The position numbers and the translations under genes are program-made. A DNA stretch of 64,000 bases. Source: a virus (Duplodnaviria > Caudoviricetes). How positions within the stretch are numbered: the stretch's first letter is position 1; each line of letters starts with the position of its first letter. The stretch covers positions 1 through 64,000 of the IMG/VR virus record IMGVR_UViG_3300031853_000013, one strand, 5' to 3'. The notes under the pieces were generated by a model, which did not search any database, had not been told where the DNA came from, and saw only the letters and a list, made by a program, of their open reading frames with translations. Below, piece by piece: positions 54-59,954 of this stretch.

Positions 54-133
54 AATATAGGCCCTCCTTAAAATATAAAAATTTATTTATAACTGCTCAA
101 TTAGAACAGTTATTGATAGAAAAAAAAGAAAGA

Positions 134-206
134 ATAGTATAGACGGAATTGAACCGCCAATCTTCCGCGGGTAAGCGGACGTGTTCACCATTAACACCTT
201 ATACTA
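134..206 (-). ncRNA. tRNA-like RNA 1 (cloverleaf with aberrant anticodon loop, no CCA)
   Basis: 7-bp acceptor TAGTATA/TATACTA, D arm GTGT-TAATGGTGA-ACAC, arm TCCGC-TTACCC-GCGGA (6-nt loop), T arm GGCGG-TTCAATT-CCGTC; lies between motif 214-238 and a U-tract. Confidence 0.8.
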
Positions 207-213
207 CCCTATC

Positions 214-6839: not shown

Positions 6840-6907
6840 TAGAAGATTTTTGCGTTAAGCTAGCAGTATGCGACAGCGGAGTTTTTGGTGTAACCATTAA
6901 TATGCAA
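6834..6907. repeat. 34-bp phased repeats upstream of element 3
   Basis: ATGCGA at 6834 and 6868, ATGCAA at 6902. Confidence 0.75.
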
Positions 6908-12173: not shown

Positions 12174-12231
12174 AAGAGTTTTTTGGTGTAACCAATATTG
12201 TGAGAGAGCAGAGTTTTAGGTTTAGCTAATA

Positions 12232-12722
12232 TCATACGAACAGCTGTTTAAAAGAACACTCCGGGCACTTAGTATATGCACAATGAGTCGTAGCTACAAA
12301 ATCATTATCAGCATAAATAGTATCCTCTTCATCCTCGTCCGTAAATATAAAATCTTCTGGTCCACTTACATCATACTCACATCTGCAAGCACCACAAGTG
12401 ACCGGGAAGATACCGAAATACTTTCCATTCTTTGTTACTTTCATCTCTTATCCTCCTCAACGCAGTCATATTGCGCAACACCACGACACCAATATAAAAT
12501 TTCAGTACCGGCTTTTGCCCTTTCAACATCGTCAATGCAGCAATCGTATTTGTTTATTTGGCGTTGCAAGCTAGCTACAAATCCGGTCAAATTGCGAACT
12601 GATATCGGTTTACGTACTTCCGGTTCTGCTGACAGGTATTCTTCGCAGCTACGGTATCGTCTCATTGCCGCAAGTGCGTTCTCGTAAAGCTGAGTAATAC
12701 GTTCATCCCTTGTATCTTTCAT
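12232..12722 (-). CDS. Two coupled hypothetical genes (12232-12444 Zn-ribbon; 12441-12722)
   Basis: CxxC...CxxC in the first; overlapping start/stop. Confidence 0.6.
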
Positions 12723-14689: not shown

Positions 14690-14746
14690 AAGCAGGGTTT
14701 TAGGTTTAGCTAACAGTATGCGAAAGCAGATTTTTAGGTCAAACCG

Positions 14747-15376
14747 TTAATCGAGCAGCTCTACAGAATCAGCTCTACCAGATGTGAACTTACCATAAGT
14801 CACCTTTACGCAATCGCTAGGTTTAAGCAGATTCCATGCTGTCTGATTTACCGAGAATGTCTTAAGCTCACCAGTGCCATGAACCTTGATAGTGATCTCA
14901 TAATTTTCGGTCTTTCTACCAACACGCTCAGAACCTTCTTGTAGATCGTTGACTTCAGGCCAATGCGGTGCCTCCCCTGCACGATTAATAGTCTCGGTGT
15001 TATTAGCAACCTTGACCCTATTATCCTTCCATTCGTCGATCTCATAGTAATACTTTGTAGCGTATCTTGACTCTTCGCGATAGCATGTCTTACCATTCTG
15101 ATCAACACCACTAGGAACTCGCTCGGTGCTCTTGTATTCCCATCTAGTGTCATATACTCTTCCACCTTTAGGAACTGTCCAACCAGACTTCTTGACAGTC
15201 TCGAGCTTCTGAATATAAATGTGACGATCCCAAGACTTAAGCATGATTTCGCCATCGATTTCAACAGGTTTAATACCGTCAACAAAGAAGCTACCGGCAC
15301 CGATGAGCCCCACTGCTCCTACGATAATAGCAAGACCCTTCTTCCAGTTATTAGCGATGAATTCCTTTACGTCCAT
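14747..15376 (-). CDS. Membrane-anchored hypothetical protein
   Basis: N-terminal TM helix; AGGAGG RBS. Confidence 0.75.
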   Translation of the reverse strand: MDVKEFIANNWKKGLAIIVGAVGLIGAGSFFVDGIKPVEIDGEIMLKSWDRHIYIQKLETVKKSGWTVPKGGRVYDTRWEYKSTERVPSGVDQNGKTCYREESRYATKYYYEIDEWKDNRVKVANNTETINRAGEAPHWPEVNDLQEGSERVGRKTENYEITIKVHGTGELKTFSVNQTAWNLLKPSDCVKVTYGKFTSGRADSVELLD

Positions 15377-24747: not shown

Positions 24748-24821
24748 TGTTATTACCTCCAAATATAAAAGAGAAAGGAGCCTGGTTAAGACTCCTCCAG
24801 TATTTTCTTAGCCCATAGATC

Positions 24822-29141: not shown

Positions 29142-29858
29142 TTACCTCCAATTATAAAAGCAGTTAGGCACGTTCATGTATTTTTGTGCCTGCTTATCGT
29201 TTGTCATGGTTTCATAAATATCGTCAAATACCACGGGAATGAGCTCATGCATCTTGACCAACAACGGGCATGTCACTCTATTCATATCAGGATGAGCAGG
29301 ACCCGTAGTATTAGCCGCTCTAAGTTTGAAGAAGTGTCGCCACTCTCTGTAATTACCGGTAACGACAATTTCTGTTTTCACACAGTTTGGAAGTACCGCT
29401 CTGCATTCTTGTGGCGTATGACCGCTATCTCTAAGATAATAGTATGCTGACGCCGCGCTCGTGAGATATTCATCAAACACCTTTTGGTCGTTAAAAGAGG
29501 CGTCGTTGTACCAGAAAGGTCTAATGAATATCAATCCTCCAGCTTTTCCGCCATCATTGTAATCCACGTATCTGGTGCTCTCCTGTGCATACGAGAAATG
29601 TCTATGTCGAACAATCTCATGTGATACTCCTCTATCAGTTTCAAAGCGAACCGATAACATCGAGTGTTCGAGCATAGCTTCATGTCCACGTTTGATAAGA
29701 CCTCTAACGAATCTCTTTGAAATCTCAGGATCGTTATTCGGATTTGCAGCCTCAGACTTGTAGCAGGTTCTCGCAGCTTCCTCAATAAGTGAGTATTCGT
29801 TGCCCTTGATCGGGGTAAGAATGTCTGTATGTGGATCAATAATCATGTGTGCTCCCAT
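29142..29858 (-). CDS. thyX: FAD-dependent thymidylate synthase
   Basis: GHEAMLEH, SHEIVRHRHFSYAQESTRY, NYREWRHFFKLR. Confidence 0.95.
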   Translation of the reverse strand: MGAHMIIDPHTDILTPIKGNEYSLIEEAARTCYKSEAANPNNDPEISKRFVRGLIKRGHEAMLEHSMLSVRFETDRGVSHEIVRHRHFSYAQESTRYVDYNDGGKAGGLIFIRPFWYNDASFNDQKVFDEYLTSAASAYYYLRDSGHTPQECRAVLPNCVKTEIVVTGNYREWRHFFKLRAANTTGPAHPDMNRVTCPLLVKMHELIPVVFDDIYETMTNDKQAQKYMNVPNCFYNWR

Positions 29859-29859
29859 T

Positions 29860-30207
29860 TTAGTTTTCCTCCTTGAATTCAATATTAAGTCTACCACAAT
29901 GAGGGCAGTATTTTGTAAATTCCTTTAAATCAGCACCACAAGCACAGCACTCGAACATGCCTGGTTCGTCAACATGATCTATAATGTGTGTAATTGCTAC
30001 AGACTTGACACCAGTCTCAAACTCTTGAAATACAGCATCGCCGAGATTACGAAGATTAATATATCTATGAAACAGATTCCGAAGTGCCTCTACATGATCA
30101 GTAGTTAGACTCTCATTCGTAAGCTCATTTTCATAGAGTATTTTGTGAAGCTCTCCGGAAAATGTAGCCTCGATAGCCTGTTCATACAGTTCCTTGAAGT
30201 CTTTCAT
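29860..30207 (-). CDS. Hypothetical with C-terminal Zn-ribbon
   Basis: CCACG...YCPHCG. Confidence 0.65.
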   Translation of the reverse strand: MKDFKELYEQAIEATFSGELHKILYENELTNESLTTDHVEALRNLFHRYINLRNLGDAVFQEFETGVKSVAITHIIDHVDEPGMFECCACGADLKEFTKYCPHCGRLNIEFKEEN

Positions 30208-37835: not shown

Positions 37836-38117
37836 TTACGCCCCAGTCTCCTCTTCGGTTGTTTCGTCCTTCTCGTCGGATTTGTCATCCTCATACGTAC
37901 TATCCGGCAGTAATGCCTCAGTAACATCATGGGCGGTCTGCCCCGCAATGCCCGCCGCACCGACCATAAGTGCAATATAACCAATCGCCTCAATCGGGTT
38001 CTTGATTTTGTTGTCACCTACGATCTTGCAGCCAACTCTGTTTGCAAACATGCCTCCGCCAATCGCACTTACCCCGCTCACCACTGCAAGGATAGTTTCC
38101 TTCGTCTTCTTGTTCAT
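37836..38117 (-). CDS. Two-TM cassette protein with acidic tail
   Basis: Ends GA-stop in the same hairpin as 28551-28823. Confidence 0.7.
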   Translation of the reverse strand: MNKKTKETILAVVSGVSAIGGGMFANRVGCKIVGDNKIKNPIEAIGYIALMVGAAGIAGQTAHDVTEALLPDSTYEDDKSDEKDETTEEETGA

Positions 38118-38158
38118 AACAAAATTCCTCCTAAATATAAATTTGGACATTACATCCT

Positions 38159-38183
38159 ATTATAGACCCTGCGCCGTTTGCGA
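38159..38183 (-). promoter_or_regulatory. TCGCA element 19
   Basis: TCGCA AACGGCG CA GGGTC TATAAT. Confidence 0.8.
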
Positions 38184-38564
38184 GCTATTGAGTCTTTTAA
38201 TCTTGCCGTGTTTATCTAAACGCATGATGAGGCGCAATATTGCGAGAACGTCTTCATCAGTGAGATTATACACAACGTCATTTGTTATCTCAGTATCGTA
38301 TGTAAGATGACCCGATGAATCCATAACACCAAGCTCGAATAGATCTCGTCCTTGAACACTTAGATGCCATTTTGACTTAACCACGCTGGCTCCCCATAAA
38401 TATCCAGGAAATGTAATCTTGTATCGAAAGCCACCTTCGTCATGATTGGTTTTAATCACTCCGCCCATATCCTTGATTGTCTGCTTAGTAGATTCAGAAA
38501 ACGGACTCAGCCATACTTTCTCTCGTCTGGTCCACGATTCTACCAAGATAGGTTTCTCTTCCAT
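38160..38564 (-). CDS. Hypothetical protein
   Basis: AAGGAG RBS; YxITFPGYxWGASVV...FELGV. Confidence 0.65.
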   Translation of the reverse strand: MEEKPILVESWTRREKVWLSPFSESTKQTIKDMGGVIKTNHDEGGFRYKITFPGYLWGASVVKSKWHLSVQGRDLFELGVMDSSGHLTYDTEITNDVVYNLTDEDVLAILRLIMRLDKHGKIKRLNSSQTAQGL

Positions 38565-38633
38565 ATCATATACTCCTTTAATTTCGAAAGGCAAAAGGGA
38601 CCTGTTAAAGTCCCCTCGCCTCTGACCATAAAT

Positions 38634-38858
38634 TCAATCGTTCTTCCACGGCTGATACTCGTCATACATCTTCTGATACTTGGCTTCCAGCGTTGTCAAA
38701 TACTTAGTCATTTTCTCAAGCGCGGACATCTCCTTAGCCGTAAGTGTGCTTTCGACATACTTGCTGTCGAGCATCTTACGAGCTCCATTAGCCGCGTCAT
38801 GTGAATAATACTTAGCATCCACAAGTGCTTTCTTCTCCAGTTCATTTAACTTTTTCAT
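38634..38858 (-). CDS. Small helical cassette protein
   Basis: AGGAGG RBS; hairpin at about 38594-38615. Confidence 0.7.
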   Translation of the reverse strand: MKKLNELEKKALVDAKYYSHDAANGARKMLDSKYVESTLTAKEMSALEKMTKYLTTLEAKYQKMYDEYQPWKND

Positions 38859-38902
38859 AACAAATTCCTCCTATAGAATATAAAGTTTGAACTTATCGTT
38901 CT

Positions 38903-38927
38903 ATTATGAGGGCTGTCTATTTTGCGA
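38903..38927 (-). promoter_or_regulatory. TCGCA element 20
   Basis: TCGCA AAATAGA CA GCCCT CATAAT. Confidence 0.8.
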
Positions 38928-38963
38928 GAAAAAGAGAGCGACATTGAGCCGCCCTCGAACTGC

Positions 38964-39413
38964 TTACCAGGTATCCCTGAGGCAGACACTGTCCTTGTAA
39001 ATTTCCGTTCCAATATAGGCCTTATCAAACGGTTCTTCACCGTTGATACCTGCCATAATATTGACAACGATATCTTTATCAGCACAAATGTCTCTGATTT
39101 CCTCAAGCTTACCCATAATGGCAGCCTCGGTCTGATCAATATCGATCTCCTTTCTCAGCATTTCTGCAATTTCCTGATCGTCTACATTCAGCGTGTTCGG
39201 TCCAGCTACCTTTTCGCCGCCTGTGATAACTCCGCCAAGATTACCGAACTCATCGTCGACCGAAGAGCACGCCTTCTTAAAGAATACAAATCCGCCAACA
39301 GCTACTGCTGCGCCGATTGCTCCTTTAACAATCGTACCCTTGTGGTCGTGCCAGAATGATTCGGTTTTAACCTTAACCTCATTCACACGCTCCTTAAAAG
39401 TCTTCTTTTCCAT
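38964..39413 (-). CDS. Membrane-anchored cassette protein; paralog of 39989-40441
   Basis: EKKxFKER...W.D...TM...KKA...C.DK shared. Confidence 0.75.
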   Translation of the reverse strand: MEKKTFKERVNEVKVKTESFWHDHKGTIVKGAIGAAVAVGGFVFFKKACSSVDDEFGNLGGVITGGEKVAGPNTLNVDDQEIAEMLRKEIDIDQTEAAIMGKLEEIRDICADKDIVVNIMAGINGEEPFDKAYIGTEIYKDSVCLRDTW

Positions 39414-39463
39414 AATAATTACCTCCTATAAATATGAATTTCAGGATAGCTTTAATGCTACCT

Positions 39464-39488
39464 ATAAAGAGACCTGTCTAGATTGCGA
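39464..39488 (-). promoter_or_regulatory. TCGCA element 21
   Basis: TCGCA ATCTAGA CA GGTCT CTTTAT. Confidence 0.8.
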
Positions 39489-39535
39489 AAGACTAAAGAG
39501 GCCTGTATAGACCCCTTTAAGTCGTCTGCGGTTTA

Positions 39536-39913
39536 TTACTTCAGGATCCGCATATCCCGCAAGATGTCCTCTGTGTATTCGCCAGCACGCTTACGCTGAA
39601 CAAGTTCGGTTCTCTCAGCATTCGTCATGTTCCGCTTGAGCTCCCAATGAAGCCCGGTGGCTGGATCATAGTAGCATTTATCCATGCGATCTTCGTGTCT
39701 GTCTTGTGCACTACCGCGTACGAGTTTAATTAATTTTACCGTACCAGTAGCCGCTCCAATAACGACAGGAAGAGCTCGAACAATCTCGCCACTATGATCA
39801 GCCGTCCATCTGAGAGCCTCATTAGCTCTATTGCTTACCGCGGTTTTGATCTCTGAGATTTTGTCTCGAATCTTATCCTTTGTACTGCGTGTGTCGTTTA
39901 CAATAATTTCCAT
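39536..39913 (-). CDS. Cassette protein with hydrophobic segment
   Basis: WTADH, YYDPATGLHWELKR; RBS 2 nt after element 22. Confidence 0.75.
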   Translation of the reverse strand: MEIIVNDTRSTKDKIRDKISEIKTAVSNRANEALRWTADHSGEIVRALPVVIGAATGTVKLIKLVRGSAQDRHEDRMDKCYYDPATGLHWELKRNMTNAERTELVQRKRAGEYTEDILRDMRILK

Positions 39914-39931
39914 TTACGACACCTCCTTTCT

Positions 39932-39956
39932 ATTATAGAACCTGTCTAATTTACGA
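39932..39956 (-). promoter_or_regulatory. TCGCA element 22 (TCGTA variant)
   Basis: TCGTA AATTAGA CA GGTTC TATAAT. Confidence 0.72.
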
Positions 39957-39988
39957 GAAAAAGAAAGGGGACTTGTGCCCCTCTCTGA

Positions 39989-40441
39989 TCAAATATCACG
40001 ATCAATACAATATCCACTGTGCGTGTAATGTTCCAGATCGAAATACTCGGGATAATCACTGGATCCTCCCAGCATTGCTCCCAGAGAAATTTCGACTCCT
40101 TTATCCTTACACGTTTCGTGAAGTGTCTGCATCTGATCGATAATCCGATCGTCCAGTTCTACAAGTCCTTTCTCTTCCCAAACCTTATCAGTCAGGAGTT
40201 CAATCTTGTCAGCCTTAGTGCCGCTCAAAGTATCAGGGTCGATCTTCGTGAGTTCCTTTAAATCACTCAGTCCTCGCTCCTGGATACTAGCTACCATGCC
40301 GTCTCCCGCCTTCTTCAAAGCAAAGATACCAGCAATACCAGCTCCAACGATAAGAGCTCCAGTGATAACCTGCTCATCATAATCGTCCCACCATTCCTTA
40401 AGTCTTTCCTTGAACGGCTTCTTTTCCTTAGCATTTTTCAT
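39989..40441 (-). CDS. Membrane-anchored cassette protein
   Basis: Start reassigned to MKNAKE downstream of element 23. Confidence 0.75.
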   Translation of the reverse strand: MKNAKEKKPFKERLKEWWDDYDEQVITGALIVGAGIAGIFALKKAGDGMVASIQERGLSDLKELTKIDPDTLSGTKADKIELLTDKVWEEKGLVELDDRIIDQMQTLHETCKDKGVEISLGAMLGGSSDYPEYFDLEHYTHSGYCIDRDI

Positions 40442-40474
40442 AAATATCATTCCTTTCCGAACCGTTTTTGGTTC

Positions 40475-40499
40475 ATTAAGTGAGTTGTCTAAATTGCGA
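40475..40499 (-). promoter_or_regulatory. TCGCA element 23
   Basis: TCGCA ATTTAGA CA ACTCA CTTAAT. Confidence 0.8.
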
Positions 40500-40523
40500 A
40501 AAAAAAAAACAAGGAGGAAGCTG

Positions 40524-40748
40524 TTACACTTCCTCGTTCTCGTAAAACCGCTGTTGTCTGGCAGCCTCTTCAAGTGCCTGTGATAAGTGGTCATACTCTT
40601 TGTAATCATGTCTCTCTGTGCACGGTCCTTCTTCTCGAATCGTGAAGAGATGATACTCAACAAAGTAGCCTTCCTGCCTATCAATCTTAACCTTGAAGAA
40701 TCTACCATCGATCTTAACCTCGTATTTTACAATATTCGTAATAGTCAT
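40524..40748 (-). CDS. Cassette protein in triplicated frame (ends EEV)
   Basis: Shares leader and 3' hairpin with 41949 and 42801 but has an unrelated core. Confidence 0.75.
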   Translation of the reverse strand: MTITNIVKYEVKIDGRFFKVKIDRQEGYFVEYHLFTIREEGPCTERHDYKEYDHLSQALEEAARQQRFYENEEV

Positions 40749-40795
40749 AATTTTCCTCCTTTAATTTCGGGGATCAGCCCTTTGCTTCTCCCTCT

Positions 40796-40820
40796 ATTAA
40801 GAGGATTGAAAATCATGCGA
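40796..40820 (-). promoter_or_regulatory. TCGCA element 24 (TCGCAT subclass)
   Basis: TCGCA TGATTTT CA ATCCT CTTAAT; ATGCAA 33 bp upstream. Confidence 0.8.
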
Positions 40821-40905
40821 GAGCAGAGTTTTGGAGTAACAAGTAGCATGCAAGAACGGCAAAAAACTAAAGAGACCTGTATAGATCCCTTTAGCTCATC
40901 AATAC

Positions 40906-41129
40906 TTACTTGCTATCCTTATTTCTCATGATGATTGAAACCAGGATAAGACATACTGCCACTATCAGGAGCATTTCACTCATTTATTACCATCCTCCTT
41001 TCTGCGCTTCTCAGGCTTAGCTATAACTGCAATGATCAGTGAGATTACATCACGTATAATCGACACTGAGCCTACAATTATCAATGCTAGAAGCACTGCA
41101 AGCACAATCAGTATTGTTTGAATAATCAT
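40906..41129 (-). CDS. Two coupled hydrophobic peptides (40980-41129, 49 aa; 40906-40983, 25 aa), not in ORF track
   Basis: AAAGGAG RBS; MIIQTILIVLAVLLALIIV... and MSEMLLIVAVCLILVSIIMRNKDSK; ATGA overlap. Confidence 0.65.
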
Positions 41130-41166
41130 AAGCTTACTCTCCTTTCTAGTAGTCAATAAGACTCCT

Positions 41167-41191
41167 ATAAAGAGAGCTGTCTAGATTGCGA
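41167..41191 (-). promoter_or_regulatory. TCGCA element 25
   Basis: TCGCA ATCTAGA CA GCTCT CTTTAT. Confidence 0.8.
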
Positions 41192-41225
41192 AAAAAAGAG
41201 AGGCGAGTTGCCACTCCTGCAAATA

Positions 41226-41531
41226 TCAATCGACATACGTAAATCTAGTTGTCAGAATAAAGCCGGTCTTCAAGTCGTAATCATACTCAGTCTGCGTACA
41301 ATTGCTCGGAGATACGACAATAAACGTCTGAACTTCTTCAACGCTGTCGGGATCTTCCCAGTGGCCCTCGCCATACTTATTCGATATTTCCTCCTTCATG
41401 TCTATAATGCCTTGCTCATACCATTTAAGTTCTCTTGTCTCGGTGATTTGTTCTGCGTGACTAGTTGTGTTTCCACATCCTGTACATATAATAGCACATA
41501 TCACCATAATCATAACAAAAGTCTTTTTCAT
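41226..41531 (-). CDS. Putative lipoprotein
   Basis: MKK plus hydrophobic core and lipobox-like CTGC. Confidence 0.7.
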   Translation of the reverse strand: MKKTFVMIMVICAIICTGCGNTTSHAEQITETRELKWYEQGIIDMKEEISNKYGEGHWEDPDSVEEVQTFIVVSPSNCTQTEYDYDLKTGFILTTRFTYVD

Positions 41532-41572
41532 AATGATCGCTCCTTTAATTATAGTAAGGCGTAATACCTTCT

Positions 41573-41597
41573 ATTAAGAGGATTGAACCATTTGCGA
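41573..41597 (-). promoter_or_regulatory. TCGCA element 26
   Basis: TCGCA AATGGTT CA ATCCT CTTAAT. Confidence 0.8.
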
Positions 41598-41639
41598 AAA
41601 AAGAAAGGGGCGTGTTTAGTTTACGCCCCTTTAATAACA

Positions 41640-41861
41640 TCAGTCCTCCTTTTTCGGCTCACCTGCCGGATGCATGATACCGATCTCCCTCTCTTCCTTA
41701 GCGTAGAAAAGCTCAAATTCGTTGATGTACTCCCTCACGTCTCTATCACTGAGCCACACACTTGTGTCAGTGCTGAAACGCTTTTTGTACGCCTCCTTTA
41801 CAGCCTCTTCAAACGCCTTGTCGAGAGCGTTCAGTCTCATTTCTTTTACATGCATATCCAT
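41640..41861 (-). CDS. Small cassette protein
   Basis: GGAGG RBS; terminator AGGGGCGT...ACGCCCCT-TTCTTTTTTT. Confidence 0.7.
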   Translation of the reverse strand: MDMHVKEMRLNALDKAFEEAVKEAYKKRFSTDTSVWLSDRDVREYINEFELFYAKEEREIGIMHPAGEPKKED

Positions 41862-41903
41862 TTAGCATACCTCCAATAAAATATAATTTGGACTTGGTGT
41901 CCT

Positions 41904-41928
41904 ATAATAGGAATTGACCAGTTTGCGA
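41904..41928 (-). promoter_or_regulatory. TCGCA element 27
   Basis: TCGCA AACTGGT CA ATTCC TATTAT. Confidence 0.8.
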
Positions 41929-41948
41929 GAAAAACAAGGAGGAAGCTG

Positions 41949-42167
41949 TTACACTTCCTCGATTTGTACTTGGCAGAGATCAATAAGCCTCTTATCCAAG
42001 GTTCGGGTTTTTGCATCAAATTCTTCTCTGGTTAACTCACCACTCAAATACTGGATCCTCCAGTCGTTGAGTAGATCAGCTATCCGATCTATTAATTGAT
42101 TATTAGCCTTCACCTGCATCGGTCTTACAATCGTCTCTACATATTCCTTCTTAGTCATTATAATCAT
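41949..42167 (-). CDS. Cassette protein (ends EEV); paralog of 42801-43010
   Basis: VKANNQLIDRIADLLNDWRIQYLSG vs VKANDQIVNRIADLLNDIRIEYISG. Confidence 0.8.
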   Translation of the reverse strand: MIIMTKKEYVETIVRPMQVKANNQLIDRIADLLNDWRIQYLSGELTREEFDAKTRTLDKRLIDLCQVQIEEV

Positions 42168-42211
42168 TTCCTCCTTTAGTTTGGGGAGTATAGCCCTTTG
42201 CTTCTCCCTCT

Positions 42212-42236
42212 ATTAAGAGGATTGAAAATCATGCGA
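42212..42236 (-). promoter_or_regulatory. TCGCA element 28 (TCGCAT subclass)
   Basis: Identical to elements 24 and 30. Confidence 0.8.
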
Positions 42237-42304
42237 GGAGCGGAGTTTTGGTGTAGCCAGTAGCATGCGAGAGAAGAGTTTTTGGTACGACCAGTGTTAT
42301 GCGA
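42231..42304. repeat. 34-bp phased repeats upstream of element 28
   Basis: ATGCGA at 42231, 42265, 42299. Confidence 0.8.
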
Positions 42305-42365
42305 TAGGGCAAAAAAGAAAGAGACCTGAAGCCTTTACGACCCCAGGTTCTTCCTTTAGCGTGTC

Positions 42366-42740
42366 TTACTTGTCCGTCTTAAAGAAGTCGCGAACATCAG
42401 TGACCCTGTTCTTGAACCACTTCGGTACGACCTGATCTTGGTCATATACCATCATCAGGAACGTCGACCCGAGTCCAGCTAAAATAGTGGATCCGCCAGC
42501 AATTACAGCATTAGGATCAACTTTCTTCCGCTGGGGTACAGTCTGTGCTACATTTGCACGCTGTTCCGCCAAAACAGTAAGATTGTCAATCGCCCTGCTA
42601 TATTCGCAAGACTGACTCCCTTTCTCAGCCAGAATCTTCGCAGCGTCCTGCTGGGCAACCGCGATCTGTTCGTCCAGTACTTCAAGTACCGTCTTGGGTT
42701 TCTGTGTTTTAGTCTTCTTTTTGAACATTTTCTTGTTCAT
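42366..42740 (-). CDS. Cassette protein with C-terminal hydrophobic segment
   Basis: AGGAGG 1 nt after element 29. Confidence 0.7.
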   Translation of the reverse strand: MNKKMFKKKTKTQKPKTVLEVLDEQIAVAQQDAAKILAEKGSQSCEYSRAIDNLTVLAEQRANVAQTVPQRKKVDPNAVIAGGSTILAGLGSTFLMMVYDQDQVVPKWFKNRVTDVRDFFKTDK

Positions 42741-42755
42741 ATAAAACACCTCCTC

Positions 42756-42780
42756 ATTATAGTCCCTGTCCCGTTTGCGA
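42756..42780 (-). promoter_or_regulatory. TCGCA element 29
   Basis: TCGCA AACGGGA CA GGGAC TATAAT. Confidence 0.8.
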
Positions 42781-42800
42781 GAAAAACAAGGAGGAAGCTG

Positions 42801-43010
42801 TTACACTTCCTCAGTTTCTACGTTCCACAATTCAGCGATCCGATCTTTAGTCATCTGCCACTTCTCTTCGAATTCCTTTCGTGATATCTTTCCGCTTATA
42901 TATTCAATGCGAATATCGTTAAGCAGGTCAGCTATACGATTAACTATCTGATCGTTAGCCTTGACAATCATCTGTCTACCGAATCTGTCGTCAAACTCTT
43001 TCATAGTCAT
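42801..43010 (-). CDS. Cassette protein (ends EEV)
   Basis: Paralog of 41949-42167. Confidence 0.8.
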   Translation of the reverse strand: MTMKEFDDRFGRQMIVKANDQIVNRIADLLNDIRIEYISGKISRKEFEEKWQMTKDRIAELWNVETEEV

Positions 43011-43059
43011 AATAATTCCTCCTTTGTTTTGTGGGGATCAGCCCTTTGCTTCTCCCTCT

Positions 43060-43084
43060 ATTAAGAGGATTGAAAATCATGCGA
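43060..43084 (-). promoter_or_regulatory. TCGCA element 30 (first after the structural module)
   Basis: TCGCA TGATTTT CA ATCCT CTTAAT; ATGCAA 34 bp upstream. Confidence 0.8.
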
Positions 43085-43128
43085 GGGAAGAGTTTTTGGT
43101 GTGACTATTATTATGCAAGAGTATCAGG

Positions 43129-45630
43129 TTATGCGGTACCAGTCCAGTTGATCGTAAAGTTTGTAGCGCCCCATCCAGTAGCATATCCAGGAATAGCGTT
43201 GGCTTTGCGATTGATGTTGAATGTTACACCATCACATCCAGCGAACGCAGAAGAGTTGATTGTTGTCATTGTATTCGGAAGATTAACAGTGGTTAGACTT
43301 GTGCAATTGAGAAATGCATTGGTATTAATAGTTTTAAGCACCGGATTAGACGCTGATGATGGTGTAAAGGTTACCATATTACTACACCCTTCAAAAGCGT
43401 TCGCATTAATTGTCGTTACCTTCGGCGGTAATATAAAATCGACAAACCCAACACATCCTCTAAAGCAACCAGTACCAATAGACGTCCACAATGGCGCCGT
43501 TATAGAAGCGAGACTTGTACAACCATCAAACATGTAAGACGAACTTCCAGTTTGCTTAGAGATCGTTGCTGATTGCAAAGCCGTACAATTCTCAAACGTA
43601 CTAGCGCCTATCGAAGTTGGCATAGAAAGGATTATTGATGTAAGACTAGTACAACCGCTAAAGCACTTCTCTCCAACAGTGTAAGTCTTAGCATTTTCGG
43701 TAAACGTTGTCAAACCGGTACATCCAGCAAATGCTTGAATGCCTACGGATGTTACTGCTGTTGGAAGAGCGAAAGACGTTAATGAGGAGCAACCGTAAAA
43801 TGCCGTCTTAGCGATAGTCTTTATTGTCGACTGGAGTTCGATCGATGTTAACGATCTACAACCAGAGAAGCAGCCTTCACCAATAGTCGTATACTTTTCA
43901 CCGATAACCGTGGTCGACGGATTCTCAGTGTTGACGGTAACCGTTCGTAGATTATAGCAGTCTTGGAATCCGTATGCGGGCATGGTGGTAGTATTACGCG
44001 GAAGGGTAATCGTGACAAGACTTTCACATCCCCGACACATGCCACTACCCATGGACGTAACCGTTTTAGCAATTGGCAAATTCGCTAGATTAGTGCAATT
44101 AGAAAACGCATAGTTACCTATGGATGTTAATTTTACAGTTTGACCGTCTGGAATTACGTATTCAAATTTCTCCATCGCACTGCATTCAGTAAAAGCAAAT
44201 TGACCAATAGAGGTAACAGTATAAGGAATGCGTACGGCAGTTCCTTCTGAAACGGTGGCCGTTATACTCGGATATCGAATGTCAATAAGACTTTTACAAT
44301 TTTCAAATGCGTATGCGTCGATAGAAGTAATTAACGAAGACGAATCATCGTAATCTATTATTACAACCGATATGAGCGATTCGCACCCGGAAAACGATGA
44401 CGCCGGTATTTTTTTAGGCGTGTCGAACGTTAGCTTGATCGTTTCTAGACTTGTACAATTTTCAAAAGAACCAACATCAGGATTTATTACATCTTCTGAT
44501 TGAAATGACTTTAATGATGTGCAATTAGCAAAACCGCTTTCATATACGCGAGTCGGTCTATCGGTCAAGAATACATTGGCGAGTTTTGTACAACCAAAAA
44601 ACATTTGCGTGCCAACTGGATAGTACCAATCACTAGAGGCCGGCATTTTTACAGTTTCCAGATTCTCGCATCCCATGAACATAGAACTAATGCTATTTAC
44701 GCCATTGCCGGTCAATGGCATGTTGTCATCGGAATAGTCTAAGTGCGTGAGATCAGCATATGTCAATTGCTTACAGTCTTTAAACGCGCTGTCATATATG
44801 TCTATAACGCAATGTGACCCATATACCATCTCGTCTTTTTCTGGTAAAACCAACTGTGTAATAGCGCTACCTTCAAAAGCGCTTTCCCCGATGGTGTATA
44901 TCGTTGGCGTTATAATATTACTAACATTAGTTAAACCAGTACCTTTAAACATGCTGTCGGAAATAAACCACAAATTTTCGGGCATATCGACGGTCGTCAA
45001 TGATTCACAGCCGTCGAACATAGATACGTACGTATCGCGAGCGTAATCGTCTGGCCATAACGAACCACCAGACATACGCTCTTGAACTATTTCTGAAGCC
45101 GTTCTAATATTCACGTTAGTCGGCAGATCAATCTCGGTAATCGATTCACAACCCTTGAAGCAGTGTTTTCCGAATGTAACGTTATTATCTGGAATCTCGA
45201 TCTCAAGAAGACTGGAGCAATTTAAGAAAGCATCGTCCTGTATTTCAATTGTCCCTTCCGGAATAACGATCGACTCGATTGAAGTAATACCCTTGAACGC
45301 TTCGCTGCCGATTACTGTACACTCGGTGGGAATAATCGCACTGATCGTGTTGGTGCTAAGTCTAAAAGTAGTCGGATCACTAATAAATATTGCACCGCTA
45401 CTACTTCCGCCTTCTTGTTGAGAAAGCTTGTAAAGAGCGTCGTGAATAGCCATTCGAATATCTTTTCCGTACGTCCCTTCACGAATGACCGCTAACTCGC
45501 CTTTAATTGCTGACCCAGGATACATGAGTTTTACCAGCTTCTCTAAAGCTGAGTCGACATTGCTTAGTACTTCTTCCCCGCCAGGTTTAGACTTTATAGC
45601 ATCAAGTTGGGAACTAATATCAACTGCCAT
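43129..45630 (-). CDS. BspA-type leucine-rich repeat protein, probable tail fibre/adhesin
   Basis: Many IGxxAFxGCxSLxSIxLP repeats; N-terminal GKDIRMAIHDAL motif. Confidence 0.85.
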   Translation of the reverse strand: MAVDISSQLDAIKSKPGGEEVLSNVDSALEKLVKLMYPGSAIKGELAVIREGTYGKDIRMAIHDALYKLSQQEGGSSSGAIFISDPTTFRLSTNTISAIIPTECTVIGSEAFKGITSIESIVIPEGTIEIQDDAFLNCSSLLEIEIPDNNVTFGKHCFKGCESITEIDLPTNVNIRTASEIVQERMSGGSLWPDDYARDTYVSMFDGCESLTTVDMPENLWFISDSMFKGTGLTNVSNIITPTIYTIGESAFEGSAITQLVLPEKDEMVYGSHCVIDIYDSAFKDCKQLTYADLTHLDYSDDNMPLTGNGVNSISSMFMGCENLETVKMPASSDWYYPVGTQMFFGCTKLANVFLTDRPTRVYESGFANCTSLKSFQSEDVINPDVGSFENCTSLETIKLTFDTPKKIPASSFSGCESLISVVIIDYDDSSSLITSIDAYAFENCKSLIDIRYPSITATVSEGTAVRIPYTVTSIGQFAFTECSAMEKFEYVIPDGQTVKLTSIGNYAFSNCTNLANLPIAKTVTSMGSGMCRGCESLVTITLPRNTTTMPAYGFQDCYNLRTVTVNTENPSTTVIGEKYTTIGEGCFSGCRSLTSIELQSTIKTIAKTAFYGCSSLTSFALPTAVTSVGIQAFAGCTGLTTFTENAKTYTVGEKCFSGCTSLTSIILSMPTSIGASTFENCTALQSATISKQTGSSSYMFDGCTSLASITAPLWTSIGTGCFRGCVGFVDFILPPKVTTINANAFEGCSNMVTFTPSSASNPVLKTINTNAFLNCTSLTTVNLPNTMTTINSSAFAGCDGVTFNINRKANAIPGYATGWGATNFTINWTGTA

Positions 45631-54284: not shown

Positions 54285-57200
54285 TTAACCCCCTCTCCTT
54301 GTTCTAGTAGCTCTCTGTCCAAGCGCCTGATCCATTGGACCGACAAGTTCGCCGACAAGTACACCGGTGTCAAGTCGTACGTCAGTGTCTGCGAATCCTT
54401 GTGCCATCTCGTTCAATCGCTCGTTAAGTTGTGTGATAGCGTTAATTACGTTAGTGTCGTCATACGGTTCAGGCTGGTTTTCAGCCATCATAGATTCGAA
54501 GTCATACGCATCCATGTTAGCAAGAGAATTAGTAGTATCCAGTGAGAACGCCGATGCGCCATCACCGAACATACTGCCAAAGTCGAAACCACCCGCATAA
54601 TCCTCGTACTGGAGATTATCCATATCGAGAACCGGGGTGATAGTCATAGTCGGGTTTTCTTCCGCCTCATACTGTGAAAGTACGTCGGCAAAGTTGTACA
54701 TATTAGAGGTGTCGATCTCGGGCTGCGGGATCTGCGCCATAGACTCGGTGAAAGCACTAGTGTCTATTTCGGGCATCTTAAATTTCTGATCGAACAAAGA
54801 TTGAGTGTTATTACGCATATCCTCAACCTGTGCCTTCATGTTGTCCTTTACATTAGACACGCTTGCTTCAGCTTCCGGTCCGGATTCCTCAACGCCGTTC
54901 TTGAATCCTTCCATAACCAGCTGACCTTGCTCTTCAGCCCAGTGAGACGGAGAACCCATGATGAATCCAAGAGGACCAACGATGATGTTCTTTATGCCAT
55001 CGACAAAACCAGTAACCGCGTCTGTCATTTTGCTAGCTTCATCTTCATCGGTAAAACCAAGGAAGAATCCATGGATAAGATCCTTGCCGGCTTTCTTGAA
55101 GTCTTCGATCTTTCCTTTAATGTCAGTAACCAGATTATCAATCTTTTCGATGATGTAATCGCGTATTTCTTGCTGACCCAGTTTAATACTATCCCATAGA
55201 TCAAGGATCCACGCCCATACAGACATCAAGATACCCCAGAGCCATTTACCGAGATCAGTTACTAAACAAGTAAAGAATTCAGCAATAAGGTTTCCGAGTT
55301 CCTCAGGCCAATGGAACAGCCAATAAAGTCCCGTTTCAATCCATCCGTCAAATGTCTCAAGTGCCTTCTGTAACCAGGTGCCAGCGGATTCAAAAGCATC
55401 GTATAACCACGCCCCGAAGTTCTCGAGGGCCTTATAAGCATCGCTCTCTTCCCACTTCATCCAGAGTTTGCCGAGCGTCGCTATAAGTAATCCCCATAAA
55501 GCTTCCAAGAGATGAACTATACCTTCAGCCAGTGATTCCTGATTATTTTCTATTGCTACGGCCAACGCCTCGATGATCGCGGCAATAAGTTTAACGAGCT
55601 CTTCAACTACGGGACCTATATTAGCTGCTGTTACTCTAAGAATATCTGCTAAACTCTGAAGTAAAAATGCTATAAACGGTCCCAGCATAGTTAATGTTGA
55701 AGCAGCGATGACCCCTAAGAAAGCGCCTATCTTTGCTGTAATAAATGGTACATTGATGATCATCCAGTCCATGAAATTCAGGAATGCATTCATAGCAGAA
55801 TTCAAAACCTGTGGATCAAATATACTATCAAAGAAATTAGCAAGCACATCACCACCATTACTACCTATCTGCTGTATAAGACTATAAAGTCTCTTAGCCG
55901 CGTCTACAAACACCCATACAGCAGCTGCAGTGGCTAACAGAGCTCCAGCAAATATCAAGAAGTTTAGTGCGAAGGAGGAAATATTGAACTTTGCAACTAC
56001 GTTAAGTCCCTTTGGCGCAGCTATCGCTGACATGAAACCAAATACCACAATCAAAGCAGCCACGATGCTACCGATCGTCTTAATCGCTGATAGACCTCTC
56101 TCTAGAGAAGTATCATCAAGTTGGCCTAACGTCGCTACTAGTCCAGCGAACGCATACATAGTAGTAGTTATGATAGCCATCGCACCACCGAGAACGATCA
56201 GACCGCCAATACGTCCACCAAGACTAGTACACAATGTAGCCAGCAGCATAAACGCGCCAACGATTCCTGACAATTGAATAATATCAAGTATTGCCTCGTC
56301 CATAGCATCTTCGCCATATCGATTATGCAATATTACTAAGCCAGCTAGAGCACCGACCATAGCGTCAATAGTAGCGCCGATAGCCATCATAATAAGTCCA
56401 ATAGATCCTATTTTGGTAGTTTTAGCGAGTGCAGTAATACCTATCATTGTAGCCAGCATAAGTATTACACCAGACATAATTGTGATCATGGCGCCTATAG
56501 CTGCTTTCATAGAGCCTTCTTTTGCCATATCAGCAGCCGCTACAAGACCTACGAATCCACCAATCATAATATCAATAGCTACAGCAATAAGCATCATGGT
56601 AGCTCCGACACCTTGCAACTGTACAATAGGGAATTTAGACAGCACAACGACAAGTCCAGCTATCAACGATACCATAGCGGTAACAACTGCCATAGCTGGG
56701 AAGAAATCGCTGAGGCTTTTTCCGTCTTTAGACAGCATACCTATAGCAAGAATGAGGCCACCTATAGCTAGCGATATTTTGAAAATGTTATTACCAACGT
56801 TCTCCATGTTCTGAAGCGGCATACTAGCCATACCTTTGAACAAAAGTTTAAACGCACCGATAATAACATACATTGCCGCCAATCCTGGTCCAAGCTCATC
56901 AGTTTTCATAGAGCCCAGAAGTGCTATAGCTCCAGCGATCATGAGCACCGACGCCGCAATAGCAAACATAGTGCCGGCAACAGTCTTACCAGCAACGGCC
57001 GCCATAGCTTTAGTCATACCAGACATAACCGAATTAAGAGTAACCATAAGCATAATGACTGAACCGAGAGCACGACCGAGCTGATCTTCTGGTACATAAG
57101 CAAGCGCTGTAAGTGCAAGGGCCAAAATGCCAATAGCTAGAGCCACGTTGATAATCATCTGAGACTTCATAAACTTTCTGAAGTCACCAAAAGCCGCACC

Positions 57201-59954
57201 AACTGTCTCTAGTGTGTCTACGATTCCATCTTTAATTTCGAAAATTACATCGGTAACTTTCTTAACGTTTTGGATGGCCTTGAAACCCTCAATAACGCTT
57301 AATGTCAAGCCAAGTGCTGAAACAATGCCAGTTACATCTCCAAGGCTGAGATTACTGAATATCTTACTGATACCATCTCCGACCTTCTGTAAAACACCTT
57401 CAGCGTCAGAGGGAATATTTTTGATCGTGGTTGACAGTTCTCCTACTGCATCGGACGTGTCTTTGACATTGGTTGCTGCCGTTTTAAGATTACTAAATAC
57501 GGTAGTTATGTTTTCGAATATTGACTTAGATTTGTCAGTTCCTTTAAACAAATTTGTTACATTACTGATGTCTGTATTACTAAGATCGGTAATCGCTGTT
57601 TTGACGGTATTTATGGTGTTAACTAATTGATCCCACATCGTATACAGATCAATGCCGGTGGTATCCTTTAGCCAATCCGCAAACGTATTCATCGCTTTTC
57701 TAAAATTCTCACCGAAATTATCAATGAAGTTATTGATCGAATCTGCGGCGCCATCGATCCAGCCGATAATAGTCTCGACGTCCATGGTATTCTTGACGAA
57801 GTCCATAGCACCTTCAGCAGCATCGCCAAACGCACTGCCGGCAGGAAGGATCTTCTCAATAAGATGACCGAAGACTTTACCTACAGCCTCAAAAATGGCG
57901 AGACCTATTCTGAAACCACCGACGAGGCCATCCCACAAACCTTTAACAATATTGATTACGGTTTCAGATGCTTCAAATTTATCAGCAAGATTCTCAACAA
58001 ACCCGGCTACCTTATCAAATATACCTCCAATGGTATCCATAACCACACTGAGCTGATCGGTCTCATCTTCTGTGCCGACCATAGCGTCAGTCACGGTGAA
58101 TAATTTGTCGGCGATTGTGATAACAGCTTTAATAACCGATCCAGCCACTTTAGCAAAGCCTTTAAACACGGTAAGACCGATTTTTACTACCTTAAATATA
58201 GCAGTGAACGCGGCTTTAATGGTGGGGAGATGTTTGTCGGAAATATAAAGCTGAGTCGTCATGTCTTTGACTTTCAACGTAAAGTCTAAAAGCGACTTAC
58301 GGAGATTCATAGGAAATACCTCGTTGAAAGCCTCCTTGATAGGTTCCACGATTTCAGCCAGACTATCCCATATATCTACAAGTATACCAGAATACTCGGT
58401 AACCTTCTCGGTTTCATACACGATGTTACCATAGGTATCCTTTAATACCTCACCGTCTTCGTTAACCTTAGCAATCTTTTCGCCGTTCTCATCAAGAACG
58501 AAGTTAGTTTTCTCGATAGCATCAAACCAGGTACTTCTACCACCGATCTTCGCGCTATAGCTATACCAGAACTTCAAAGCCTCGTTTCTTGCATTATTGA
58601 ACGGCTCGATGATACCAGTAATCGCATTATTGACCGCCGTCCAGAGTTTGGGAGCATCAGTAAAACCGCCTACAATATACTGCCATGTTTCAGTCCATCC
58701 AGACTGTGCGGCTTCCTTGAGAGCATCCCACATCTGTGTGAACGTACGAACCTTCGTAGCAGCATCAGTAGCTACCGTACCGAGATCCATAATCTCTTTA
58801 ACCGCTTCGTCAGAATATCCAAGATCTTTCCAGTAAGCCTCATCGAAGTCACCGGCAAACTTAGCCAAGGTTTCGCTAAGTACATCGGTTGTTAACCAGT
58901 TTTGTGCGAGAGATTCACGGAAGCTTCCTTCACCCGTTATAAGTTCATCGATACTTCCGTATCCAGTATCTTCAATCACTGCTCGATAACTATCATCGAC
59001 TTCCATGAGGTGTTCAGCAGTAGCCTTTAACGCATCCTGGAATGTCTTACCACCCATACCAGCAGTATGCTCTAAGCTCATCCAGTCCTGAAGTCTAACA
59101 CGTCCAGTAGCAAGAGCCTGAGACAACTGGAACATCGATCGAGAAGCATCCGAAGCCGGAGCGCCTACGTATGCGGCAAGGTTAGCGATACCCTTTACAG
59201 AACGAGCAGAAGTATCAACATCAATACCGGCCGTGGTAAACTGACCAATAGCCTGAGTCATCTGAGTAAAGTTGTAGATAGTCTTATCTGCGTACAGATT
59301 CAAATTATCAAGAACTTCCTCGATATGTTCAACGGTTGTACCACTGGATTTAGCTATCTCATCGTTAAAATCGTCCATGGATTTCGCAGTGCCATTAGCA
59401 AGTTTATTAACCATGGACTGAACGGTGCCATAATCAAGTCCTGCGGCAGCAAGAGCATCCACTCGAGCCTTACCATTACCGTAAATGTTCGGACCGAACC
59501 AAATCTTGTTAACAGCCTCAAGCGACTCGGCCATGGACTTAGCAGAGTCAGCAGCGTCCTGGTTTAAGGCACCTGTATTAGCTGCAATAACCTGGATCGA
59601 GTTCATCTTGGTCTCATACTCTTGGAAGCCGGTTGTAATCGGATCTACAGCGAGAGCCTTTACAATATTTTTGCCGAGATTGATAGCACTATCGGCGATT
59701 CGGTCAAAGATTTTCAGAACGGTCACATCGAGTAACGAGAAATTAGCATGAACTTGAGAGATGCCGTCGTTAAGTCCCTTGAAACTTATATGATTAGCCG
59801 CTTTTTCAATAGAATCGAAACCCTCTGCAGCCTTTTCAAGTTTTAGAGCCTTCTTAAGTTTGTCGATAGTAGAGAGTGACTCTTTAACGTTTTTCTCAAA
59901 CCTTGAGTTGTCGAATTGCATTCGAACAATTCTTTCATCAACGTTGTTTGACAT
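54285..59954 (-). CDS. Tape measure protein
   Basis: 1889 aa; LNLYADKTIYNF...QLSQALATG tape-measure domain; long Ala/Gly hydrophobic helical region. Confidence 0.92.
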   Translation of the reverse strand: MSNNVDERIVRMQFDNSRFEKNVKESLSTIDKLKKALKLEKAAEGFDSIEKAANHISFKGLNDGISQVHANFSLLDVTVLKIFDRIADSAINLGKNIVKALAVDPITTGFQEYETKMNSIQVIAANTGALNQDAADSAKSMAESLEAVNKIWFGPNIYGNGKARVDALAAAGLDYGTVQSMVNKLANGTAKSMDDFNDEIAKSSGTTVEHIEEVLDNLNLYADKTIYNFTQMTQAIGQFTTAGIDVDTSARSVKGIANLAAYVGAPASDASRSMFQLSQALATGRVRLQDWMSLEHTAGMGGKTFQDALKATAEHLMEVDDSYRAVIEDTGYGSIDELITGEGSFRESLAQNWLTTDVLSETLAKFAGDFDEAYWKDLGYSDEAVKEIMDLGTVATDAATKVRTFTQMWDALKEAAQSGWTETWQYIVGGFTDAPKLWTAVNNAITGIIEPFNNARNEALKFWYSYSAKIGGRSTWFDAIEKTNFVLDENGEKIAKVNEDGEVLKDTYGNIVYETEKVTEYSGILVDIWDSLAEIVEPIKEAFNEVFPMNLRKSLLDFTLKVKDMTTQLYISDKHLPTIKAAFTAIFKVVKIGLTVFKGFAKVAGSVIKAVITIADKLFTVTDAMVGTEDETDQLSVVMDTIGGIFDKVAGFVENLADKFEASETVINIVKGLWDGLVGGFRIGLAIFEAVGKVFGHLIEKILPAGSAFGDAAEGAMDFVKNTMDVETIIGWIDGAADSINNFIDNFGENFRKAMNTFADWLKDTTGIDLYTMWDQLVNTINTVKTAITDLSNTDISNVTNLFKGTDKSKSIFENITTVFSNLKTAATNVKDTSDAVGELSTTIKNIPSDAEGVLQKVGDGISKIFSNLSLGDVTGIVSALGLTLSVIEGFKAIQNVKKVTDVIFEIKDGIVDTLETVGAAFGDFRKFMKSQMIINVALAIGILALALTALAYVPEDQLGRALGSVIMLMVTLNSVMSGMTKAMAAVAGKTVAGTMFAIAASVLMIAGAIALLGSMKTDELGPGLAAMYVIIGAFKLLFKGMASMPLQNMENVGNNIFKISLAIGGLILAIGMLSKDGKSLSDFFPAMAVVTAMVSLIAGLVVVLSKFPIVQLQGVGATMMLIAVAIDIMIGGFVGLVAAADMAKEGSMKAAIGAMITIMSGVILMLATMIGITALAKTTKIGSIGLIMMAIGATIDAMVGALAGLVILHNRYGEDAMDEAILDIIQLSGIVGAFMLLATLCTSLGGRIGGLIVLGGAMAIITTTMYAFAGLVATLGQLDDTSLERGLSAIKTIGSIVAALIVVFGFMSAIAAPKGLNVVAKFNISSFALNFLIFAGALLATAAAVWVFVDAAKRLYSLIQQIGSNGGDVLANFFDSIFDPQVLNSAMNAFLNFMDWMIINVPFITAKIGAFLGVIAASTLTMLGPFIAFLLQSLADILRVTAANIGPVVEELVKLIAAIIEALAVAIENNQESLAEGIVHLLEALWGLLIATLGKLWMKWEESDAYKALENFGAWLYDAFESAGTWLQKALETFDGWIETGLYWLFHWPEELGNLIAEFFTCLVTDLGKWLWGILMSVWAWILDLWDSIKLGQQEIRDYIIEKIDNLVTDIKGKIEDFKKAGKDLIHGFFLGFTDEDEASKMTDAVTGFVDGIKNIIVGPLGFIMGSPSHWAEEQGQLVMEGFKNGVEESGPEAEASVSNVKDNMKAQVEDMRNNTQSLFDQKFKMPEIDTSAFTESMAQIPQPEIDTSNMYNFADVLSQYEAEENPTMTITPVLDMDNLQYEDYAGGFDFGSMFGDGASAFSLDTTNSLANMDAYDFESMMAENQPEPYDDTNVINAITQLNERLNEMAQGFADTDVRLDTGVLVGELVGPMDQALGQRATRTRRGG

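Follow-up and report, generated by a model that had tools for sequence, protein, structure and literature searches.

The DNA considered here is the first 64,000 nucleotides (the window) of IMG/VR virus record IMGVR_UViG_3300031853_000013 (Duplodnaviria; Caudoviricetes), a record of 91,112 bp rated complete and referred to as G000. The long open reading frames (ORFs) of the window are all on the minus strand, and directly downstream of the tail module, at the onset of a run of small genes, three short ORFs are each enclosed by a conserved leader and a conserved tail (Table 1). This region had been described in a sequence-only reading as a triplicated frame with exchanged cargo, and the coordinates and identities given there all hold, with one start codon to be corrected. 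The 46-bp leader is present in exactly three copies (40776-40821, 42192-42237 and 43040-43085; none expected), and the exact identity extends to 53 bp between leaders 1 and 3 (40769-40821 and 43033-43085), with both outer sides mismatched at once. The tail, the 31-mer GAGGAAGTGTAACAGCTTCCTCCTTGTTTTT, likewise has exactly three copies, both in the window and in the entire record, always on the minus strand, with none expected in shuffles.

All three ORFs terminate in Glu-Glu-Val-stop (GAG GAA GTG TAA; EEV) within the tail hairpin. Two of the cargos are diverged paralogues, which form family F1 (proteins of 72 and 69 amino acids as first read; 49% identity, E 1e-22), while the third, a protein of 74 amino acids (40524; family F2), is unrelated to them by BLASTP (E 2.1) and in predicted secondary structure and fold class. 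The claim that the flanks are more conserved than the cores is borne out by the paralogue pair, in which 46/46 leader positions and 31/31 tail positions are identical, compared with 116/198 (59%) in the coding core. Third codon positions in these cores are identical at 24/66, against 26% expected from composition; they are near saturation, and the F1 paralogues are old. The corrected start is that of the 72-aa ORF in cassette 2, whose first ATG lies only 2 nt past the Shine-Dalgarno (SD) site, so that the second ATG (42158) is the likely start; this yields 69 aa, matching the homologues, in an ORF that is open from 42167.

The F1 protein is modelled with confidence as a two-helix hairpin (pLDDT 88), and the F2 model contains three strands and one helix at low confidence (pLDDT 51). 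Pfam and PHROGs returned nothing above threshold for any cargo or neighbour, a Foldseek search of the F1 model against PDB returned nothing at E<=0.001, and the ESM Atlas contained only unnamed viral clusters, below 0.9. Among billions of proteins, five relatives of F1 were found, close or distant (two distant), all of which end in EEV, together with one homologue of F2, 84% identical and ending in Glu-Glu-Ser (EES) instead of EEV. The cargos are thus ORFans, with 0-5 homologues each. A larger duplicated unit spanning the genes after cassettes 2 and 3 was also considered and rejected, as the proteins encoded there, of 127 aa and 73 aa, are without similarity.

Leader and tail as predicted transcription signals

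The leader starts with TCGCATGATTTTCAATCCTCTTAAT, which fits the pattern TCGCA-N7-CA-N5-YWTWAT (TCGCA-N7-CA-N5-CTTAAT in cassette 3). The window contains this pattern 29 times (0.01 expected), without exception on the coding strand, and the copies are confined to the non-structural part at 0-43 kb, where each precedes an SD site and an ORF, frequently just behind a terminator. Copy number, strand and position bias together suggest a phage-specific promoter with a fixed 25-nt geometry. The element lacks sigma-70 geometry, having no -35 hexamer at 16-18 nt, and the leaders are not recognised as such in a sigma-70 scan; a search of the phage genome for sigma-70 region 2 gave no match. The promoter is probably read by a phage-encoded single-chain polymerase homologue, for which the candidate is an 897-aa homologue of PHROG 4291 (Table 1) that carries a C-terminal helix-turn-helix similar to sigma region 4 and gives a weak, sub-threshold RdRP-family match. 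Its relatives in cultured phages are annotated variously as DNA-binding protein or RNA polymerase, the nearest occurring in Arthrobacter, Gordonia, Streptomyces, Lactococcus and Faecalibacterium phages. A search for T7-like RNA polymerase gave no match, and its control likewise gave none.

Degenerate units of about 34 bp accompany one class of these elements. One (CTTGCAT..ACACCAAAAACTC) lies ahead of leader 3 (43086..43121, minus strand), and similar units occur at 42238-42307 (two copies) and 40822-40855, and also at about 14690-14760, 12174-12245 and 6840-6900 on the minus strand. They (TCGCAT..GGYTACACCAAAAACTC..) stand one to three in tandem directly upstream of the TCGCAT/TTTTCAA promoter subclass, and they were seen in G000 only, with none in the two related records introduced below, G001 and G002. 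These units could be an upstream binding array or decoy half-promoters.

Directly behind the TAATAG box, the leader continues with an interrupted hairpin, GGGA-GA-AGC-AAAGG-GCT-GA-TCCC, in the predicted 5' untranslated region (5'-UTR), followed downstream by the SD site AAAGGAGGA. For all leader types, the predicted folding energy of the hairpin is -10.3 to -11.4 kcal/mol, and the z-scores are -1.1 to -2.5 (-10.7 kcal/mol and z -2.2 in cassette 3), and no Rfam match was obtained at E<=1 in 38000-44000. Across the nine leaders available from three genomes, the loop and inner stem GAAGCAAAGGGCT are nearly invariant and the outer stem varies; a MAFFT alignment places these outer stems out of register among the three leader types.

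The tail consists of an 8-bp stem (GAGGAAGU/GCUUCCUC) with the stop codon TAA in a 6-nt loop, followed by CUUGUUUUU, and its 5' arm encodes the terminal Glu-Glu-Val. It folds at -15 kcal/mol (z -4.1) and scores as terminator-like, so the tail is predicted to be an intrinsic terminator that starts within the ORF. In G000 the next promoter element follows 1-6 nt past the T-tract, giving composite terminator-promoter blocks at 42756-42812, 41904-41960 and 40475-40535. Two tail alleles were distinguished, an EEV form (GAGGAAGTG-TAA-CAGCTTCCTC, 8-bp stem) and an EES form (GAGGAGTCT-TAA-CAGGCTCCTC, 9-bp stem; also written GAGGAGTCT-TAA-CAGGCTCC), and since both arms differ between them, each allele still forms its stem.

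Tails were also observed away from matching leaders. At 24776..24797 (minus strand), a degenerate EES-type hairpin with the stop in its loop closes an ORF ending ..LEES without a matching leader, and a tail-only EES/KES-type hairpin lies at about 5614-5636 in G002. Because such hairpins close ORFs with another promoter subclass or with no leader, tails combine with other fronts. In addition, the tail 3' arm with its T-tract, UUCCUCCUUGUUUUU (40505-40519, 41930-41944 and 42782-42796), is about 87% complementary to the leader SD region AAAACAAAGGAGGAA (43016-43030). The two ends of one mRNA could therefore pair; alternatively, this may be mere SD/anti-SD-like composition.

Table 1. Positions of the three cassettes and of other genes mentioned in the text (window coordinates, except for the last row)
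Feature	Position	Strand	Remarks
Cassette 3 leader	43011..43085	-	promoter element 43060-43084; predicted 5'-UTR hairpin 43034-43056; SD AAAGGAGGA ahead of ATG
Cassette 3 cargo, family F1b (69 aa)	42801..43010	-	last three codons and stop inside tail hairpin
Cassette 3 tail	42782..42812	-	terminator-like hairpin and T-tract; next gene's promoter 42756-42780 adjoins
Cassette 2 leader	42168..42237	-	promoter element 42212-42236, identical to cassettes 1 and 3; hairpin 42184-42208
Cassette 2 cargo, family F1a (69 aa)	41949..42158	-	91-93% identical to G001 copy
Cassette 2 tail	41930..41960	-	identical 31-mer; promoter element 41904-41928 adjoins
Cassette 1 leader	40749..40821	-	promoter element 40796-40820; hairpin 40770-40792
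Cassette 1 cargo, family F2 (74 aa)	40524..40748	-	unrelated to F1
Cassette 1 tail	40505..40535	-	identical 31-mer, then promoter element 40475-40499
BspA-type leucine-rich repeat (LRR) protein (tail-fibre-like gene)	43129-45630		
Thymidylate synthase (thyX)	29142-29897		PHROG match
Primase-polymerase fusion	774-4910		PHROG match
Tape-measure protein (long gene)	54285-59954		PHROG match
PHROG 4291 homologue, 897 aa	84733-87423 of G000 (beyond the window)	-	E 0

Cassettes in related genomes

Exact and degenerate leader/tail patterns were scanned for in IMG/VR, JGI metagenomes and GTDB genomes, and the ORFs between them were catalogued. Only two related records were recovered, both from other samples: G001, a 35-kb fragment, and G002, a record of 86.7 kb rated complete. 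Both share the promoter family of G000, and the segments that they share with it are 65-79% (G001) and 66-86% (G002) identical in nucleotide sequence. The leader pattern had no match in 185,579 bacterial genomes (GTDB), and protein-based locus searches added only a distant 58-kb contig (L021), without a cassette at the site. Two further candidates, L011 and L012, were discarded as chance tail-like matches.

A scan for the leader hairpin motif and tail-like hairpins yielded nine complete frames in the three genomes. To the three of G000 (F1b, F1a and F2), G001 adds five, carrying F1a (70 aa), the ORFan F3 (100 aa), F4 (57 aa) and the small membrane proteins F5a and F5b, which are 34% identical to one another; the single frame of G002 carries F6 (67 aa). 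Each is flanked by a leader with the GAAGCAAAGGGCT hairpin and a tail with the EE[V/S]-stop hairpin. In all-against-all BLASTP, the only links are those among the F1 members and between the two F5 proteins, leaving six unrelated cargo families in nine frames, and no homologue of F3 was found among billions of proteins. The flanks are thus not restricted to the cargos of the window, as the 100-aa, 57-aa, 67-aa and two membrane cargos demonstrate, and other cargos do lie between the same ends, as the exchange proposed earlier would have it.

Two explanations of the shared ends were compared in the light of these genomes. It is likely that the three units are self-contained expression cassettes whose ends act as portable homology and which are shuffled by recombination. 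The other explanation, which is improbable, is that the flanks are identical only from co-regulation and that genes are gained and lost by illegitimate recombination independent of them. Several of the comparisons bear directly on this choice.

Over 307 bp, the F1a cassettes of G000 (41931-42237) and G001 (29273-29578) have 91.5% identity, and this is the sole segment shared by the two genomes above 80%, the others reaching 65-79% with a weighted mean of 72%. Third codon positions are identical at 61/70 in this cassette versus 140/260 in thyX (Fisher p 1.7e-7), whose proteins are 87% identical between the two. The similarity runs from the TCGCAT of the promoter to the T-tract of the terminator, with unrelated sequence outside, and the loci differ, being after the tail module in G000 and after thyX in G001. 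A cassette that is far less diverged than its genome points to horizontal movement, and bounds that coincide exactly with the ends of the frame are not what co-regulation alone would leave between genomes.

At thyX, empty and filled states of one site are available. In G002 and G000, the thyX stop overlaps the ribosome-binding site (RBS) of the next gene (TTTTATAATTGGAGGTAA), which constitutes the empty site, and G001 carries two tandem cassettes there, with the unrelated cargos F1a (70 aa) and F3 (100 aa). In front of each stands a copy of a 77-nt direct repeat (2 mismatches), the first part of which is the final 18 nt of thyX. Since these repeats with their copied piece of thyX stand before unrelated cargos, the frame has been duplicated in place around different cargos, which again argues against flanks held alike by regulation only. 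The G001 units at this site are bracketed by a 12-nt repeat, TTTTATAATTGG, which is also a generic intercistronic RBS context.

The edge of the insertion is visible in the thyX codons themselves. Comparison of G001 29570-29600 (L008) with window 29142-29160 shows the last thyX codon and stop, AGG TAA, replaced by CGT TGA; as the G001 protein still ends in ..NWR, the 5' edge of the insert provides the Arg codon and the stop.

Two other sites extend the comparison. Cassette 3 is absent from G002, where the promoter of the 127-aa gene's homologue comes immediately after the LRR gene, and the extra DNA of G000 at this site spans TCGCAT to T-tract. At a site shared by G001 and G002, with homologous neighbours (79% and about 40% protein identity), the leaders are alignable and the 23-bp EES tail is identical, while the cargos between them are unalignable. 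Replacement of cargo at conserved ends, as originally proposed, is therefore supported by the F1a breakpoints, the empty and filled site and the site with different cargos, with the amendment that whole promoter-to-terminator units move as well.

The leaders of G000 provide a separate line of evidence. Among 435 pairs of promoter elements, the three cassette pairs alone agree throughout the 12 free positions (mean 5.0), and they share 20-21 of the next 21 nt (mean 7.3 over the 435 pairs). These free positions are not functionally fixed, given that the G001 leaders vary at them, yet the three G000 copies are identical, so that leader identity in G000 exceeds the promoter requirement, a sign of recent shared descent or of gene conversion. 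Cassette 2 has a mosaic leader that matches its G000 neighbours through GGGCT and then its G001 orthologue, as is seen in the divergent 3' half of its hairpin, and this too is difficult to reconcile with shared regulation as the only cause. Moreover, the GGGCTGATCCCC leader is found with both EEV and EES tails, and F2, with EEV at its end here, has EES in its sole homologue; leader and tail types re-assort.

On a larger scale, the block at 39.7-42.4 kb (window 39700-42400 compared with G002 39180-41670) has collinear borders and differs in every small gene. It is about 2.6 kb long, consists of promoter-terminator units with one gene each, and represents a hyperplastic region.

Weighing the explanations

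Taken together, these comparisons favour cassettes shuffled at their ends. The leader would supply one copy of the phage promoter, a strong Shine-Dalgarno site and, at or near the transcript 5' end, a hairpin that either stabilises the mRNA or serves as a shared operator. The tail terminator would supply the last three codons (EEV, or EES in the second allele) and the stop codon in its loop. With lengths of 46-77 bp and 23-33 bp, the ends may be long and similar enough to serve as portable homology, and homologous recombination at them, which the positions of the breakpoints suggest, would allow whole cassettes to move among sites and lineages, to duplicate in tandem and to have the ORF between them swapped. 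Whole units would also insert next to another promoter or RBS.

Several observations weigh against this interpretation, or narrow it. The z-scores of the leader hairpin are modest, and the conservation of the flanks could be partly regulatory, since the loop GAAGCAAAGGGCU is nearly invariant in nine leaders, as an operator bound by a protein would be. Some of the conservation, most of all that of the loop, probably reflects shared regulation, which is compatible with exchange. The insertion at the thyX site may have used the 12-nt microhomology, which lies outside leader and tail. RecT, ERF, Sak4/AAA_24 and Rad52 were not detected in G000, so that the recombination would have to be carried out by host functions, by template switching linked to replication or by a phage protein that has escaped recognition. 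Finally, only three genomes of the clade were found, hence few independent events.

The microhomology and the searches without a recombinase also count in favour of flanks kept alike by co-regulation only. So does the pattern in the nine leaders of three genomes, where a nearly invariant loop and inner stem are combined with a variable outer stem and spacer, as expected of an RNA operator that binds a protein, and so does the fact that strong promoters and terminators are commonly conserved within a phage, the promoter element here having 29 copies. Exchange at the ends is still preferred, owing to the exact bounds of the F1a cassette, the identical free promoter positions, the mosaic leader and the in-place duplication at thyX described above.

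Far less probable is local tandem duplication followed by divergence, with the third cargo arising by overprinting or from an F1 copy that diverged to an extreme degree. Indeed, cassettes 2 and 3 are paralogues 848-852 bp apart, the repeat reaches into the next promoter, and all F1 members found, the two distant ones included, end in EEV, so that the tail may be native to F1. Against the proposal, F2 has its own 84% homologue elsewhere, making it a real separate family, and a predicted secondary structure unlike that of F1; the proposal is largely refuted by the four further cargo families in other genomes and by the cassette at another locus whose synonymous divergence is far below that of its genome, both of which it leaves unexplained. 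An assembly artefact, in which repeats were collapsed or chimerically joined, is hardly credible: identical repeats can mislead assemblers and the contig is from an uncultured virus, yet a read is longer than these repeats of 31-53 bp, every copy lies in unique sequence with its ORF intact, and the architecture recurs in two independently assembled records from other samples.

A more elaborate version of cassette exchange, speculative and doubtful at present, would treat the frame as a true plug-in slot. The slot would complete an in-frame ORF fragment, and the invariant 5'-UTR loop would bind a phage protein that co-regulates every slot gene. A ribosome halting in the hairpin loop could render termination dependent on translation and in this way gate the promoter-less gene immediately behind the tail in G001. 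Excised circles of the cassettes would pass among co-infecting phages.

Known systems and genomic setting

The closest known systems are the PeSL (early promoter and stem-loop) regulatory cassettes, and also phage morons. In T4-type phages, PeSL are motifs of about 100 bp, comprising a promoter and a stem-loop, found to either side of ORFans in hyperplastic parts of the genome (Arbiol et al. 2010, PMC2839356; Comeau et al. 2014, PMC4122927). They mark the breakpoints of indels and replacements between related phages and form mini-circles carrying one chimeric motif (PMC2839356), and their promoter has the host sigma-70 consensus (early) with an upstream AT-rich region (PMC2839356). The cassettes described here resemble them in the repeated intergenic combination of promoter and stem-loop terminator, predicted as a composite block, in their location beside ORFans in a hyperplastic region, in breakpoints at the motifs (thyX, LRR, the shared site and the F1a bounds, in three genomes) and in having units with their own transcription signals. 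They differ in a promoter that is not sigma-70-like and is probably read by a phage polymerase, and in a genome that is not that of a T4-type myovirus (91 kb, a long tape-measure gene and a primase-polymerase fusion). The frame is also in two parts, a leader that includes a 5'-UTR hairpin and a tail apart from it, and the terminator starts inside the ORF, so that cargos end in EE[V/S] with the stop in the loop. Mini-circles are a trait of PeSL; the present cassettes are known from sequence alone.

Like morons, the present units carry their own promoter and terminator and are inserted between genes adjacent in a relative, at the thyX and LRR sites; unlike morons, many of them share ends and form arrays. 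The term moron denotes a single gene that brings along its own promoter and terminator and separates two genes which are neighbours in a related phage. Morons are usually mutually unrelated, reside in temperate phages and are expressed from the prophage. They are reportedly treated in work by Juhala et al. (2000), Hendrix et al. (2000) and Cumby et al. (2012).

Integron cassettes offer a further likeness, with ORFs of unrelated function, promoterless or not, between conserved recombination ends that often overlap the 3' end of the ORF and with arrays of interchangeable cargo. The present frame differs from them in having no attC-type imperfect palindrome and in ends that are transcription signals, at which exchange would proceed by general rather than site-specific recombination; no integrase was seen, and none was searched for. 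The T7 class III promoter with the phi10 leader combines a long promoter read by the phage polymerase, a 5'-terminal stem-loop (GGGAGA...), a strong SD site and a hairpin terminator. It is alike in layout only, with different sequence and geometry, and, as noted above, the T7-like polymerase search and its control were both without a match.

This is a gene-shuffling cassette of the kind known from T4-like phages, built from different parts: the promoter type, the split frame with a 5'-UTR hairpin and the in-ORF terminator that gives the cargos a common C-terminal tripeptide are new. The idea behind PeSL, that transcription signals double as recombination handles for accessory genes, thereby reaches beyond T4-like myoviruses to an uncultured and unrelated phage lineage, which apparently relies on a polymerase and promoter of its own. 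The genome comparison is unusually clean, as it includes an empty and filled site, a shared site with different cargo and a test of recent transfer at synonymous sites. The ORFans marked by the frame form a small and probably co-regulated set, and are for that reason good candidates for roles in host takeover or anti-defence. In addition, the order of promoter, 5' hairpin, SD site and in-ORF terminator provides a natural design for modular expression cassettes.

The genome is that of a 91-kb, siphovirus-like, lytic-type and uncultured phage that is unrelated to T4. Its PHROG matches include tail proteins in addition to the genes in Table 1, and a megablast of the cassette region against cultured phages was without a match. 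Close to the start of the window, ARAGORN identified a tRNA-like gene with an undetermined anticodon (132-207, minus strand), directly after the promoter element at 214-238. Two 150-aa proteins encoded at 39989-40441 and 38964-39413 (minus strand) are distant paralogues (23% identity, E 2e-8), each with a basic N-terminus, one predicted membrane helix and its own promoter and terminator.

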